Part shown: piece by piece, positions 10,733-15,136 of the stretch | Layout of the letters: every line of letters begins with the position of its first letter | How positions within the stretch are numbered: position 1 is the first letter of the stretch | DNA from: a bacterium | Lineage (GTDB): Bacteria > UBP7 > UBA6624 > JBBIMK01 | NCBI GenBank assembly: GCA_037444445.1 | Contig: JBBIMK010000023.1 | Span: 1 to 30,560 of the forward strand | Direction of reading: 5' to 3' | DNA: 30,560 nt | Notes under the pieces: generated by a model | What the model was told of the DNA's origin: nothing | The model's input: the letters and a program-made list of their open reading frames with translations, nothing else | The model's database searches: none | Made by a program: the position numbers and the translations under genes

Positions 10733-11848
10733 ATGACGGAAAAAGGAAGAAAGAAAGCGGGATTCACACTTGTAGAGTTGATGGCAGTGGCGTCGCTGGC
10801 GGCGATTCTTTCCAGTTTCGCCCTCTCCGCCGTCGCGGGGGCCATCAATTTTAAGAAGGGTATAGACACCGAAGGAAAAGCGGAGGCATTGAAGGGAGCC
10901 CTCCTGCGTTACTTTGAGGATGTGGGAACTTTTCCGGTGATTGACCCCGGTGACACGACCGTGGGGAGTACGGGTCTTCGGAAACTCGGTCAAAATCTGG
11001 ATAATCGTCAGGGCTGGAAAGGAAATTATATGGACCCCAAAGTCCATCAGAAATTCCTGGTGGACGGGTGGGACCGGAATTTCCGGTACCGTTTTGGCGT
11101 GAACGCCAATGGGGTAGGGGTGGCTCTCATCCTGAGCCCGGGGCGAAACGGGGTGGTGGATTCCAACCTTACCAGCTGGACTCAGGACGGCTGGGTGCCT
11201 CAAGGGGATGACATCGCCCGAAAAGCCTCTGTGGCAGAAATCATCAAGCGGCAGGAAGAGCAGGTTCGTCGCCAGTTACTTCTTCAGAGAGGTCGTCTGA
11301 TTGCCACGAATCCCACCGCCTCCCCCACCCTCTTCCCCCTGCCTACCGACATCTGGGGAAGAAACCTGGTGTATGCCCGATGCTCACCTTACTCCGCCAT
11401 CATTTACAGTGTGGGGTATGATGGGGTGGATAATTCTGGTGGGACCACTGGAATCTGTGACCGGGGGTATCCGTTAGGGGATGACATAATGGAGAATGCG
11501 AAATGGGAGGTTATGGGGCGATTGGCGGGGCTTTTGAACGACGGCTGGACCGGAGGCCTCCACGCCAATCAGGCGGTCTGTTCCGCCTATACCTATGTGG
11601 CGGTGAATAACTTCAACGACCCACTTATTATTGATTATTACGATTCCCGGTTGAATCACCGAAATGTCACCGTCGCCCCCCGCTCCACCCAGTATATCCC
11701 CGATGTCTACCCCTGGATGATGACGGGAAATCGGGTTCCTCTGGTGGTCTACCGCAACGGTGTAGAATATGACGACTTCCTGGGTGCCAATGCGGATATG
11801 GACCAGGATTGTTATTATCAAAAAATCTTTTACAACGCCGGGGGGTGA
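10733..11848 (+). CDS. Giant GspG-like pseudopilin paralog 1 (371 aa from ATG 10733; the ORF track starts at 10703)
   Basis: Class III signal MTEKGRKKAG|FTLVELMAVASLAAIL. GspG-like head: ALLRYFEDVGTFP...GWKGNYM...DGWDRNFRY...ALILSPGRNG...GDDIAR. Second GspG-like module: DIWGRNLVYARC..IYSVGYDGVDNS..C...GDDI. A C-terminal Cys...Cys domain follows. The SD-like GGGGGTGA lies 5 nt before ATG 10733. Confidence 0.85.
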   Translation: MTEKGRKKAGFTLVELMAVASLAAILSSFALSAVAGAINFKKGIDTEGKAEALKGALLRYFEDVGTFPVIDPGDTTVGSTGLRKLGQNLDNRQGWKGNYMDPKVHQKFLVDGWDRNFRYRFGVNANGVGVALILSPGRNGVVDSNLTSWTQDGWVPQGDDIARKASVAEIIKRQEEQVRRQLLLQRGRLIATNPTASPTLFPLPTDIWGRNLVYARCSPYSAIIYSVGYDGVDNSGGTTGICDRGYPLGDDIMENAKWEVMGRLAGLLNDGWTGGLHANQAVCSAYTYVAVNNFNDPLIIDYYDSRLNHRNVTVAPRSTQYIPDVYPWMMTGNRVPLVVYRNGVEYDDFLGANADMDQDCYYQKIFYNAGG

Positions 11849-11852
11849 AGAA

Positions 11853-12902
11853 ATGAACCGGATGTGCAAAACGCGAAGAAAAGGCGTGACTTTCGTAGAA
11901 ATGTTGGCCACCGCTGTGGTGGTGATGGTGGTGGGTTCTATGCTCTTTTCCGTATCTTTCAGCCTCGTGAACTATGACAGGGATGTCCTGACGCAGGATG
12001 AGTTGGAAAAGATTAAAGAGGCGTGTCTTCGGTATTACCTGGATATGGGGGCATTTCCGGCGGGCAGTTTAGCGGGGCTGATTGACGCACCTCCGGGAGG
12101 GAATCCCGCGTGGCGAGGTCCTTACATTGCCCGCTCTCGGGCTCAACTTCTGAATGACGCCTGGAATCGGGCGTATCAATATGTCACGACACGCACGCCC
12201 GCCGGTGTGGATGTGGCTCTCGTGGTCAGCGCAGGCAAGAACGGCGTCCTGGAATCCGATGTCGCAGGGTTTAACGGCGGCCTCTGGGATACCGGGGGGG
12301 ATGACCTTGCCACTCTGATTACTTCCAAAGAAGTCCAGAGAGAGTATGAAGAATTAACCCGCATCACCCTGAGCCTGGTTCGGAGCCGATTATTGTCCGC
12401 CCATCCCGATTCTCCTCCACCCAATTATTCCGTTTCCCAGTTCCGGGACGCCTGGGAAACTCCCCTTCAGTATGTTCGCTGTAACCCTTACAGTGCTGTC
12501 ATCTACTCCTATGGAGCCAACCGGCAGGATAATTCTGTGAATGGTGTGCTCATCTGCGCCGGTGCCCCCATTGGAGACGACCTGTACACTACGGCTATCT
12601 GGGAACTCCGGAAGGAAATTCCTCCGGAACAGCGGCAATGGACCGGCGGGTTGGATGTGAACCCCGTCCAGTGCGCCAACTATACTCTTCGGGTGACGAA
12701 TCGCTACGGTAGCGGTGCTATCACAGTGAAATACAACAATCTGAGTAACACGGCCACCGTGAATGCGGGACAAACCGTCAACATCACCACGAATCCCCGC
12801 CTGATTGAAGTTTATAGGGGAAGTCTACTTCTGGACCGCATCAAACCCCAGCAGGCGGATTTGAACTCGGACTGCGTGGTGGCGAAAAATTATGGCCTGT
12901 AA
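11853..12902 (+). CDS. Giant GspG-like pseudopilin paralog 2 (349 aa)
   Basis: MNRMCKTRRKG|VTFVEMLATAVVV (V at +1, E at +5). Same layout as paralog 1: ACLRYYLDMGAFP...AWRGPYI...DAWNRAYQY...ALVVSAGKNG...GDDLA, then DAWETPLQYVRC..IYSYGANRQDNS..C..GDDL, then WTGGLDVNPVQC...NSDC. GGGGGTGA lies 4 nt before the ATG. Confidence 0.85.
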   Translation: MNRMCKTRRKGVTFVEMLATAVVVMVVGSMLFSVSFSLVNYDRDVLTQDELEKIKEACLRYYLDMGAFPAGSLAGLIDAPPGGNPAWRGPYIARSRAQLLNDAWNRAYQYVTTRTPAGVDVALVVSAGKNGVLESDVAGFNGGLWDTGGDDLATLITSKEVQREYEELTRITLSLVRSRLLSAHPDSPPPNYSVSQFRDAWETPLQYVRCNPYSAVIYSYGANRQDNSVNGVLICAGAPIGDDLYTTAIWELRKEIPPEQRQWTGGLDVNPVQCANYTLRVTNRYGSGAITVKYNNLSNTATVNAGQTVNITTNPRLIEVYRGSLLLDRIKPQQADLNSDCVVAKNYGL

Positions 12903-14012: not shown

Positions 14013-14026
14013 GAGGGGGTGAAGAA

Positions 14027-15136
14027 ATGAACACGAACCGGTTAAGGAAGAAGCGTGGAGAAATTTTGGTGGCCACCCTGCTACTGGTGGGAGCGGTGGT
14101 TCTTCTCGGCGCTGCAGTGGTCCCTGTTACAGTGAGCATTGTTCAAACCCGGAAAGAAAGAGAAATGAAGGCGAAGATGAACCGGATGGAAGACGCTCTC
14201 CTTCGCTACTATCAGGACAAGGGGCAATTCCCTCAGGGCAATGACACCATCGCCGCTATGCAACTGTTTGCTCCCACCGATGCAGGGGACCCCGCCTGGC
14301 AGGGTCCTTATATTTCGGACATTCCAAGGAATGTCATCGGAGACCCGTGGCGAATCAACTACACCTTTGACAGTGGTGTGAGCCCATCAGAAGGAGATGT
14401 GGCTCTGATTCTATCCGGTGGTCGGGACCGGAGTAAGGAATCCGTAACCGCTGACAGGGTATGGACTTCGGACACCTGGTCGCCCTCCTCCAGTGACGAG
14501 GCGAGAAGAGTGAACACGATGAGAATTGCGCCACAATTGATCCAGAGAACCCGGGACCGATTGGATGTCCTGAAGGGTCAGATATACGCTGCCTTCCCCA
14601 CGGCTCCTCCTGCGACTTATACGCCGGCGATTACCGATGCCTGGGGGAATCCTTATATTTATCGGCGCTGTCACGGCTTCGGCGCCGTGCTGTATTCCTA
14701 TGGGGTCAATCAAACCGATAATAGCAATGGCGGCGTCACTCCCTGCACCCTGAACCGCCCCGGCGGGGATGACCTGTTCATTCCCCTCCTCTGGGACATC
14801 TCCGCTCAAACCACCGGCATCCGCTGGAAAGGCGGATGGGGTGCAAACCCCAACATCTGCGCCTCTTATTCTATGACCGTCTGGAACCTTTACCCGAATC
14901 CGATACGGGTGACCACTTATGACACCTCCTACGCTACCCGCACGATTGATGTCCAACCCAATTCATCTACCCTCATTACCAACATCGCCCCAATGCATCG
15001 CACCTATTGGACGATAAATGTGTATTATCGGGAGAACTCTACGAGCCCCTGGAACCCGGTGGAAGGATTGTATCCAACTCTTGCGGACCTGGATGGGAAC
15101 TGCGCCATACAGAAAGTGTATGGCTTTCAGTTCTAA
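14027..15136 (+). CDS. Giant GspG-like pseudopilin paralog 4 (369 aa) with a non-canonical N-terminus
   Basis: MNTNRLRKKRG|EILVATLLLVGAVVLLG has no F at +1 and no E at +5. The rest is colinear with paralogs 1-3: ALLRYYQDKGQFP...AWQGPYI...DPWRINYTF...ALILSGGRDR, then DAWGNPYIYRRC..LYSYGVNQTDNS..C..GDDL, then WKGGWGANPNIC...DGNC. Confidence 0.8.
   Translation: MNTNRLRKKRGEILVATLLLVGAVVLLGAAVVPVTVSIVQTRKEREMKAKMNRMEDALLRYYQDKGQFPQGNDTIAAMQLFAPTDAGDPAWQGPYISDIPRNVIGDPWRINYTFDSGVSPSEGDVALILSGGRDRSKESVTADRVWTSDTWSPSSSDEARRVNTMRIAPQLIQRTRDRLDVLKGQIYAAFPTAPPATYTPAITDAWGNPYIYRRCHGFGAVLYSYGVNQTDNSNGGVTPCTLNRPGGDDLFIPLLWDISAQTTGIRWKGGWGANPNICASYSMTVWNLYPNPIRVTTYDTSYATRTIDVQPNSSTLITNIAPMHRTYWTINVYYRENSTSPWNPVEGLYPTLADLDGNCAIQKVYGFQF

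Follow-up and report, generated by a model that had tools for sequence, protein, structure and literature searches.

Four tandem genes for giant pilin-like proteins with a duplicated GspG-type head beside an assembly ATPase in an unclassified bacterial lineage

The subunits of type 4 filaments are small pilins with a single head, and these filaments are believed to owe their functional diversity largely to foreign domains grafted onto minor pilins. [quoted passage not shown] Pilins with grafted extra modules are already established as 'modular pilins', large proteins of 35-50 kDa that are expected at the filament tip (PMC8179133); S. sanguinis PilB and PilC, ETEC CofB, Thermus ComZ and GspK all carry domains grafted C-terminally onto a pilin module, and in the known systems a single modular pilin accompanies small ones. 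Core minor-pilin complexes (GspH-I-J-K, PilH-I-J-K / FimU-PilVWX and ComGD-G) are made of four pilins that are encoded together in a fixed order by the machinery genes, with one member lacking Glu5 (PMC10191384). The bacterial DNA analysed here, a stretch of 30,560 nucleotides referred to as the window, encodes four adjacent proteins, G1-G4, that very probably are subunits of the type 4 pilin class in which the head is duplicated. This locus appears to have taken a different route, in which the pilin head was tandem-duplicated within one polypeptide and fixed as four specialised paralogues.

The preliminary description of this DNA had reported four tandem, colinear paralogues of 349-371 aa on one strand, and all four open reading frames are present at the expected plus-strand positions (Table 1). 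Full-length identity between the paralogues is 28-33% (BLASTP E 1e-51 to 1e-64), and orthologues in other assemblies, at 39-95% identity, show that the genes are real. The gaps from G1 to G4 are 4, 15 and 14 nt, the second being 6 nt if G3 begins at GTG 12909. The most likely start of G3 is ATG 12918, which is preceded at a distance of 7 nt by AGGAGG and agrees with the MTNI start of P0001, a 95%-identical protein. G1 starts at 10733, and the ribosome-binding context GGGGGTGAA is common to G1, G2 and G4. Because the gaps are only 4-15 nt and the ribosome-binding sites match, the four genes are likely to be expressed at similar levels.

Table 1. Features of the cassette and its surroundings; arrows mark the predicted cleavage point in the leader.
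Feature	Position	Strand	Length	Remarks
Promoter-like site	9453-9481
Gene X, signal-peptide protein with AMIN domain	9494-10627	+	377 aa	First gene of conserved block
G1, putative giant modular pilin	10733-11848	+	371 aa	Leader MTEKGRKKAG↓FTLVE
G1 alpha1 and head 1	10733-11218
G1 helix 2 and head 2	11219-11494
G1 C-terminal beta domain	11495-11845
G2, putative giant modular pilin	11853-12902	+	349 aa	Leader MNRMCKTRRKG↓VTFVE
G2 head 1 region	to 12311
G2 helix 2 and head 2	12312-12590
G2 C-terminal domain	12591-12899
G3, putative giant modular pilin	12918-14012	+	364 aa (367 aa from GTG 12909)	Leader MTNIHKRKG↓FTLME
G3 head 1 region	to 13382
G3 helix 2 and head 2	13383-13673
G3 C-terminal domain	13674-14009
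G4, putative giant modular pilin without Glu5	14027-15136	+	369 aa	Leader MNTNRLRKKRG↓EILVA
G4 head 1 region	to 14503
G4 helix 2 and head 2	14504-14782
G4 C-terminal domain	14783-15133
Hairpin then T-run, 3' end of G4	15104-15124			No enrichment over shuffled sequence
PilB/GspE-class assembly ATPase	15275-17401	+	708 aa	N-terminal MshEN c-di-GMP-binding motif; ~150-aa C-terminal extension
Small conserved partner gene	17398-17799	+	133 aa	Overlaps ATPase stop codon by 4 nt
GspF/PilC-type platform protein	27778-28917	-	379 aa	Pfam T2SSF E 7e-39; 10 kb away

G1-G4 resemble GspG in their class III leader with Gly-1, in Glu5 (G1-G3), in a long alpha1 and in the T2SSG head motifs. A prepilin-type leader had been proposed for all four; this holds for G1-G3, in which the leader reads G↓F/V-T-x-x-E with Glu5 present, whereas G4 (G↓EILVA) keeps the Gly and the hydrophobic helix but is atypical in lacking Glu5. 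N_methyl (PF07963) scores above the cut-off in G1 and below threshold in G2 and G3, and the Pfam scan returned no N_methyl match in G4. The first head matches T2SSG (PF08334, gathering score 21) above threshold in all four proteins, with 28.2, 51.8, 48.2 and 50.3 bits for G1-G4 (E 9e-14 for G2 and 2.7e-13 for G4). The PDB sequence match is GspG 5wda (E 1e-7), spanning alpha1 and the head, and EpsG and PulG are the top Foldseek PDB matches of head 1 at TM 0.64-0.69, in agreement with the GspG-type head noted previously. Identity as GspG equivalogs is ruled out for all four, as their TIGR01710 scores of 37.7, 42.6, 53.4 and 50.1 bits lie under the cut-off of 88.85. Because of these scores and the absence of a T2SS gene context, 'pseudopilin' is for G1-G4 a term of resemblance only. 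In contrast to the core minor-pilin complexes, which they recall as four co-encoded pilins in a fixed order with one lacking Glu5, G1-G4 are unrelated in sequence to H, I, J and K and are mutual paralogues with GspG-type heads, and the complex that they would form is putative. No Pfam match to the GspH/I/J/K (PilH/I/J/K) families was found in G1-G4 at E <= 1, and the sole NCBIfam GspH match covers the G1 leader region (E 0.0016, 18.5 bits; cut-off 80).

Beyond the GDDI motif, where GspG ends, each protein continues with a second head and a beta-sandwich, which makes G1-G4 2.5 times longer than GspG. In the AF2 model of the G3 entry, alpha1 (residues 13-66) and the head 1 strands (113-162, pLDDT ~90) are followed by a helix (164-188), the head 2 strands (211-258), a low-confidence linker (261-276) and the beta-sandwich (281-363), and the order helix, beta1-beta2, loop, beta3 in head 2 is that of head 1. 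When head 1 is aligned with head 2 by hhalign, the probability is 77% (E 2e-5) with four sequences and 95.9% (E 6e-9) with 33 family sequences; head 2 also aligns with independent canonical T2SSG pilins (91.8% probability, E 7e-7), the C-terminal domain serving as negative control. These results substantiate the second helix, Pro-rich turn and second GspG-like beta module of the preliminary description, and at the profile level head 2 is an internal duplication of the pilin head. The double PF08334 match that had been anticipated came out in part: head 1 is above threshold, the isolated head 2 gives E values of 0.04 in G1 and 0.02 in G4, below threshold, and no T2SSG match was found by Pfam in the isolated head 2 of G2 or G3. 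A Foldseek search with the C-terminal half retrieved weak VHL-like beta-sandwich matches only, and not GspG. Cys pairs are invariant at Cys215/Cys243 and Cys278/Cys357 (G3 numbering), and head 2 carries such a pair, whereas GspG has a Ca2+ site in the matching region.

The AF2 model thus has the layout of a modular pilin, with head 1, then helix 2 and head 2, a flexible linker and the beta-sandwich, and it is like CofB in that a pilin module precedes two beta-rich domains. Unlike in the known modular pilins, however, what is grafted first is another copy of the pilin head rather than a general functional domain, an arrangement for which we found no described case in the literature. The terminal domain differs from the usual grafted domains in having no Pfam family or recognisable function, and the architecture is common to all four proteins instead of being confined to one among small pilins. 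The further domain of ~100 aa proposed earlier is borne out as an all-beta C-terminal domain of ~110 aa in the AF2 model, with no Pfam, PDB-sequence or convincing fold match. Within each orthogroup no segment is better conserved (49-56%, with G1 orthologues at 56%), yet between the window paralogues this domain is among the least conserved (28%), which argues for a paralogue-specific constraint. One lineage has the same cassette without this domain.

The four orthogroups occur in the same gene order in at least five other loci (L001, L003, L006, L007 and L009) and are evidently ancient. Orthologues by position are 39-47% identical, against 28-35% between paralogues (L001, L003, L006 and L007). 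The G1 orthologue comes first in the cassette in L001 (78%), L007 (46%), L003 (46%) and L006 (43%), the G2 orthologue comes second in all five loci, and the fourth-position orthologue lacks Glu5 in each of the five, as do representatives P0009 and P0011. Since each position has its own orthologue in the same order, the four proteins probably have non-redundant roles. Neither Pfam and NCBIfam nor the PDB sequences or published work yielded a characterised family of this length, in keeping with the remark made at the outset that the architecture fits no described system.

The adjoining assembly ATPase, already noted in the preliminary description, matches T2SSE (PF00437, E 6e-135) and MshEN (PF05157, E 7e-22), and its residues 6-57 score 69.1 bits against the NCBIfam c-di-GMP motif NF053729 (cut-off 38), so that binding is predicted. 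It shares this organisation with the MshE/PilB-type extension ATPases, yet it differs from them in its ~150-aa C-terminal extension and its dedicated 133-aa partner, both limited to this small clade, and in scoring below the equivalog cut-offs for PilB (605 bits against 675.65) and GspE (576 bits against 630.25). Its orthologues, of 699-753 aa, are restricted to the same few unclassified MAGs. The ATPase gene lies directly downstream of the cassette in the window, L001, L006 and L007, and in L003 the contig end cuts the gene after G4. In L008/L009 the gene immediately before the cassette encodes a GGDEF protein. A gene of 118-133 aa directly follows the ATPase in L001, L006, L007, L012 and L013; the 133-aa partner has no Pfam or NCBIfam match. 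Gene X has a Pfam AMIN domain (PF11741, 28.9 bits; cut-off 20.5). Its place is occupied in L001 (69% identical), L006, L007, L012 and L013, those sequences being only marginally similar, and it is position only that suggests a role for it in the system. L012 and L013 keep the block of gene X, ATPase, small gene, second ATPase and PilC without the four pilins, and L009 has the pilins with no adjacent ATPase; physical linkage of pilins and ATPase is thus not obligatory. The GspF/PilC platform in the window is a possible partner of the pilin system, and it is only 26% identical to the L007 platform directly after the ATPases. The 30.5-kb contig contains no genes for a prepilin peptidase, a secretin or PilMNOP/GspCLM, and among T2SS components the window and the stretches read of L001, L006 and L007 hold GspE-like and GspF-like genes only, with no GspD, GspC/L/M or GspH-K.

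What could four such subunits build? The explanation we favour, tentatively and at somewhat less than even odds, is that G1-G4 are specialised modular type 4 pilins that make up a heteromeric tip or priming complex with G4 as its cap. What the sequences show is the gene set with its rarity, its ATPase linkage and its four orthogroups, the domain layout with the duplicated head, and the missing Glu5 of G4; processing, assembly, tip location and ligand binding we infer as follows. Each subunit combines a class III signal peptide, a hydrophobic alpha1, a complete GspG-type head, a second soluble head (a helix and a three-stranded sheet with a disulfide, born of internal duplication) and a family-specific, disulfide-bonded beta-sandwich. 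A prepilin peptidase encoded elsewhere would cleave after the conserved Gly, and the PilB/GspE-like ATPase, gated by c-di-GMP through MshEN, would act with a GspF/PilC platform to pull the subunits from the membrane. The alpha1 helices may then hold the four proteins together as a single heteromeric complex that tips a type 4 filament and corresponds in function to the GspH-I-J-K / PilH-I-J-K priming complex, with the Glu5-less G4 incorporated first as the cap, and the stacked second heads and beta-sandwiches would point outward as the working, binding surface. G4 is proposed as the cap because Glu5 is missing from the fourth protein at all the loci examined and because in known type 4 filaments a Glu5-less subunit caps the core minor pilin tip complex and starts assembly (PMC10191384). 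The location suits the expectation that large modular pilins sit at filament tips (PMC8179133). The non-redundant roles, the paralogue-specific constraint, the likely similar expression and the linkage to the motor also speak for this explanation. Counting against a tip complex are the lack of prepilin peptidase, secretin and PilMNOP/GspCLM genes in the window and the fact that linkage to the ATPase is not obligatory. In addition, all four heads are of the major-pseudopilin type (GspG) and none is like GspH, I, J or K, and neither the window nor any related locus encodes a conventional small major pilin that could form the fibre below the tip.

The last two points would suit the main rival, in which G1-G4 are themselves the bulk subunits of a thick heteropolymeric type 4 filament or long pseudopilus, with G1-G3 as co-major pilins, G4 as cap, and a fibre surface bearing two extra layers made of second heads and beta-sandwiches. 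Some filaments are known to have two major pilins (PMC10191384), and the hairpin and T-run at the end of G4 could lift pilin transcripts relative to the ATPase, although this terminator-like site shows no enrichment over shuffled sequence. Major pilin genes are, however, usually transcribed alone and at a high level, and the four fixed-order orthogroups with their paralogue-specific C-terminal conservation fit a defined complex better than interchangeable subunits, so that we consider the heteropolymer rather unlikely. A broader reading takes the cassette, gene X, the extended PilB-like ATPase and the 133-aa partner (in relatives also a second ATPase and the PilC platform) as an unrecognised type 4 filament subtype restricted to an unclassified bacterial lineage, whose fibre would consist wholly of the four giant double-headed subunits, without a conventional major pilin, as a thick multilayered heteropolymer with a Glu5-less cap; we regard this as unlikely.

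Still more doubtful is a short pseudopilus, periplasmic or embedded in the envelope, that would serve a divergent type II secretion-like or DNA-uptake machine as a piston or gate and not as an external fibre. In its favour, the head resembles GspG and not PilA, the ATPase reaches almost as high a score for GspE as for PilB, and the operons of the more distant multi-head relatives L004 and L010 include an ATPase and a platform, that of L010 also a secretin; a few genes upstream in L008/L009 there is a ComEC gene. Against such a machine speak the lack of secretin, GspC/L/M and GspH-K genes in the window, L001, L006 and L007, the scores of all four proteins under the GspG equivalog cut-off, and the bulk of the subunits, whose disulfide-bonded outer domains resemble exposed surface modules. 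The large globular C-terminal portion, which has no assigned role in pilin assembly, and the strong conservation of its terminal domain inside each orthogroup would also suit non-filament substrate binders at the surface or in the periplasm, whose class III signal and alpha1 would serve only for membrane anchoring or as a handle in assembly, as in the archaeal bindosome. This is very improbable, as Glu5 is kept in three of the four proteins and specifically absent in the fourth, a pattern that marks ordered filament assembly, an extension-type ATPase is closely linked to the cassette, and domain searches of G1-G4 detected no solute-binding or enzyme domain.

If the tip complex that we favour is correct, it would have evolved independently as an analogue of the HIJK priming complex and would offer a natural test of the essential features of that complex, namely four subunits of which one lacks Glu5; the fibre reading would imply a new filament architecture. 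Two uncharacterised domains come with the family: the C-terminal beta-sandwich, and the ATPase extension together with its partner. The pilin family is extremely rare, comprising 27 matches among 1.84 billion representatives, all from uncultured bacteria, and its members are named 'GspG' by automatic annotation only, which hides the class.

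The four tandem giant pilin genes (G1–G4) can safely be said to encode type 4 pilin-class proteins in which a GspG-type module (head 1) is joined to an internal duplicate of that head (head 2, preceded by helix 2) and to a new C-terminal domain. The preliminary description had the coordinates, sizes, and spacing of the genes right, as ORF calls and gap lengths show: the intergenic gaps are 4, 15, and 14 nt. The ribosome-binding context GGGGGTGAA is common to G1, G2, and G4. For G3, ATG 12918 is the most likely start, because AGGAGG lies 7 nt upstream and a 95%-identical homolog, P0001, begins with MTNI. 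The four proteins are 28–33% identical to one another over full-length alignments (BLASTP E 1e-51 to 1e-64). That they are chance ORFs or pseudogenes is ruled out by orthologs conserved over the full length and by invariant Cys and motif columns.

Coordinates of the genes discussed and of the segments of the G3 structure model
Feature	Position	Strand	Remarks
LAGLIDADG ORF	825-1493	-	within 23S gene (Pfam)
LAGLIDADG ORF	2217-2762	-	within 23S gene (Pfam)
X, signal-peptide protein with AMIN domain	9494-10627		upstream of G1
G1	10733-11848	+	371-aa ORF
G2	11853-12902	+	349-aa ORF
G3	12909/12918-14012	+	367/364-aa ORF
G4	14027-15136	+	369-aa ORF
PilB/GspE-class ATPase	15275-17401	+	708 aa; 138 nt downstream of G4
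ATPase partner	17398-17799	+	133 aa; overlaps ATPase stop codon
GspF/PilC-type platform gene, orphan	27778-28917	-	10 kb away, directly upstream of uvrA
G3 model, alpha1	residues 13-66		AF2
G3 model, head 1 strands	residues 113-118, 125-131, 157-162		AF2, high confidence, pLDDT ~90
G3 model, second helix	residues 164-188		AF2
G3 model, second small sheet	residues 211-215, 222-227, 253-258		AF2, pLDDT 77-93
G3 model, disordered linker	residues 261-276		AF2
G3 model, all-beta C-terminal domain	residues 281-363		AF2, pLDDT 50-79, moderate confidence

G1–G3 start with a basic leader with terminal Gly, after which come F/V-T-x-x-E and a hydrophobic helix. G4 keeps the Gly and the hydrophobic helix and reads EILVA after the Gly, without Glu5. 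Searched with a family profile, the PDB yields GspG chains that align across alpha1 and the head (5wda, E 1e-7). The internal duplication of the head proposed in the preliminary description is borne out by profile–profile comparison of head 1 with head 2, which from the four window sequences gives 77% probability (E 2e-5) and from 33 family sequences 95.9% (E 6e-9); the motif D-x-W-G..Y.Y / vlS.G.N..D / GDDI is present in both alignments, which span 51–52 columns. A further match (91.8% probability, E 7e-7) links head 2 to an independent alignment made up of PulG and conventional single-head T2SSG pilins, and the C-terminal domain, which served as internal negative control of these comparisons, matches neither the head nor the T2SSG pilin profiles. 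The accompanying expectation that T2SSG (PF08334) would be hit twice per protein held for head 1, as Pfam places it above the gathering score in all four proteins, only over residues ~45–140; for isolated head 2 the match is sub-threshold in G1 (E 0.04) and G4 (E 0.02) and absent in G2 and G3. On the strength of the sequence profiles and the identical order of secondary-structure elements in the model, head 2 as an internal duplicate of head 1 is well supported.

The AF2 model of G3, computed from an 11-sequence alignment, has a mean pLDDT of 76.6, and its top Foldseek matches in the PDB, taken as a whole, are EpsG and PulG (3fu1, 4lw9, 3gn9, 1t92) with target-normalized TM scores of 0.64–0.69. 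A separate model of the C-terminal half gives only marginal matches to VHL beta-domain-like structures (E ~1e-3, TM ~0.3, rmsd ~7 Å), and we therefore take the C-terminal domain as a generic beta-sandwich; redundant weak VHL entries saturate the top 50 of this Foldseek search, in which no GspG appears. The isolated C-terminal domains have no Pfam match at E <= 10, and for the C-terminal half there is nothing among PDB sequences even at E 10 and nothing meaningful in BFVD. Four cysteines are invariant among 16 family members, C215 and C243 in head 2 and C278 and C357 in the C-terminal domain (G3 numbering), and these pairs probably form two disulfides.

Proteins of this kind are rare. A profile of helix 2, head 2, and the C-terminal domain, run against 1.84 billion representative proteins, retrieved 27 proteins at E <= 1e-3 and nine at E <= 1e-30, and five relatives of G3 emerged from 5.8 billion clusters searched by a word index. 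All relatives are metagenome or MAG sequences; those with a name are automatically annotated as "type II secretion system protein GspG" in "bacterium" or in "bacterium JZ-2024 1", which NCBI places under unclassified Bacteria. The 16-member family alignment is too diverse for the derivation of search patterns; GTDB species genomes scanned with family patterns contained no relative. The relatives comprise full-architecture proteins of 348–385 aa, two-head proteins of ~235–275 aa that lack the C-terminal domain, and three-head proteins such as P0022, P0025, and P0031. In two loci, L004 and L010, operons that open with a ~200-aa GspG-like pilin carry ATPase and platform genes followed by a more distant multi-head relative. 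In L004 this is P0005 (374 aa); in L010, where a secretin is also encoded, it is P0022 (366 aa), with three heads. Head multiplication has thus occurred in more than one type of system. Our literature search turned up no account of pilins with a duplicated head, nor of the related "bacterium JZ-2024 1" MAGs.

Among related loci drawn from JGI, Logan, ENA, and NCBI assemblies, L001, L003, L006, and L007 each contain four tandem giant pilin genes. The best match of each window protein is the gene at the same position, with 78–82% identity in L001 and 39–47% in the distant loci, and identity to any paralog is 28–35%. Inside each orthogroup, conservation is highest in the C-terminal domain (49–56%), which at 28% is among the least conserved segments between the window paralogs. 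These same-position matches and the orthogroup-specific C-terminal conservation indicate that the quadruplication is old and that each paralog is under a constraint of its own. In L009 the same four orthologs occur in the same order as two-head proteins with low-complexity tails instead of the C-terminal domain, and the fourth gene lacks Glu5 in every locus compared (L001, L003, L006, L007, L009). In this two-head cassette (L009 7164–10781, also L008), the product of gene a terminates in a poly-Pro tail, and in gene c (411 aa) a long acidic run and then Cys-rich repeats, CPRGxRWxGRRCV, replace the beta-sandwich; a GGDEF/HD protein is encoded immediately upstream of the cassette, and a ComEC gene lies a few genes beyond it. 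Two overlapping ORFs, 170 and 212 aa long, make up the G3 ortholog of L006 (12115–13202, contig FWWM01000710.1); the break is either an assembly-error frameshift or the mark of a pseudogene.

The ATPase next to the cassette carries an MshEN domain and an above-threshold c-di-GMP-binding motif, and falls below the equivalog cut-offs of PilB and of GspE. A hairpin with an 8-bp stem and, after it, a T-rich run (15104–15124, +) at the extreme 3′ end of G4, ahead of the 138-nt gap that precedes the ATPase gene, may be a partial terminator; hairpin and T-run sites are not enriched relative to shuffled sequence. Neither the ATPase C-terminal extension (~150 aa, 16900–17401) nor the partner, which is kept at the same position in five other loci, has a Pfam match at E <= 10. 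The two have an IPGF segment in common (hhalign, 6.5% probability, E 0.006, 21 columns only), and with this probability and no support from Pfam we do not claim that they are related, paired Roadblock-like domains. L006 and L007 continue with a second ATPase, a PilC/GspF platform, and murG; in the window, the position of the second ATPase and PilC is occupied by YqeB, of selenium-dependent molybdenum cofactor biosynthesis (18237–19064, −; TIGR03309, 343 bits), and the adjoining MoaE (17807–18262, +). The block pyrD-X-ATPase(~750 aa)-small gene-ATPase2-PilC-murG occurs in L012 and L013 without the four-pilin cassette, with X at 556–616 aa, and no ATPase adjoins the L009 cassette, so that the linkage is frequent and not obligatory. 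The window encodes no further prepilin, prepilin peptidase, secretin, or PilMNOP/GspCLM, and the identity of its GspF-type protein to the platform of L007 is only 26%. Upstream of the GspF-type gene, beyond a spacer of ~470 nt with a 96-aa ORF on the same strand, lies the gene of a lipoprotein-like protein (29388–30335, −) that combines Big_9/PKD and cohesin domains with a Pro-rich tail.

What might these proteins do? The reading that we tentatively favor, at somewhat less than even odds, is that G1–G4 form a heteromeric tip or priming complex. It is favored by the fixed order of the four orthogroups, which are encoded together, are each separately constrained, and are likely made in similar amounts, as the 4–15 nt gaps and matching ribosome-binding sites suggest. 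It is also favored by the one dedicated member without Glu5, G4, since assembly of known filaments begins with a core minor pilin complex capped by a Glu5-less subunit (PMC10191384), and by the bulk of the proteins, since a tip is where bulky modular pilins are expected (PMC8179133). The adjacent ATPase would power assembly of the four pilins, and c-di-GMP could gate it.

The main rival, which we consider rather unlikely, makes G1–G3 co-major subunits of a thick heteropolymeric fiber with G4 as its cap; in its favor, the heads are of the major-pseudopilin type, and no small major pilin was seen at any locus. Two readings rank below both the tip complex and the thick fiber: a short pseudopilus of a T2SS-like or DNA-uptake kind, which seems improbable, and a non-filament, bindosome-like anchoring role, to which we give very little credence. 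Among known systems, G1–G4 are not equivalogs of GspG, have no T2SS context around them, and show no homology to GspH–K. They fit the class of modular pilins (PMC8179133), but differ in that what is grafted first is itself a pilin head, and the final module belongs to no known family. Double-headed pilins should be surprising and useful for pilus specialists, but they vary a theme that is already established, and they come from uncultured organisms, where they are known from sequence and models.

Finally, the contig carries rRNA genes. The 23S gene (189–4944, −) is interrupted, as it spans 4756 nt against a model of ~2925 nt. It contains a group I intron (1541–1860, −; Rfam) and two LAGLIDADG homing endonuclease ORFs (PF03161, E 2e-45; PF00961, E 7e-11), which together indicate probably two intron insertions. 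No tRNA was found in the 16S–23S spacer. The 16S gene (5086–6659, −) has 62% G+C compared with 53% in the protein-coding part of the contig, an excess that suggests, and does not prove, a thermophilic organism.
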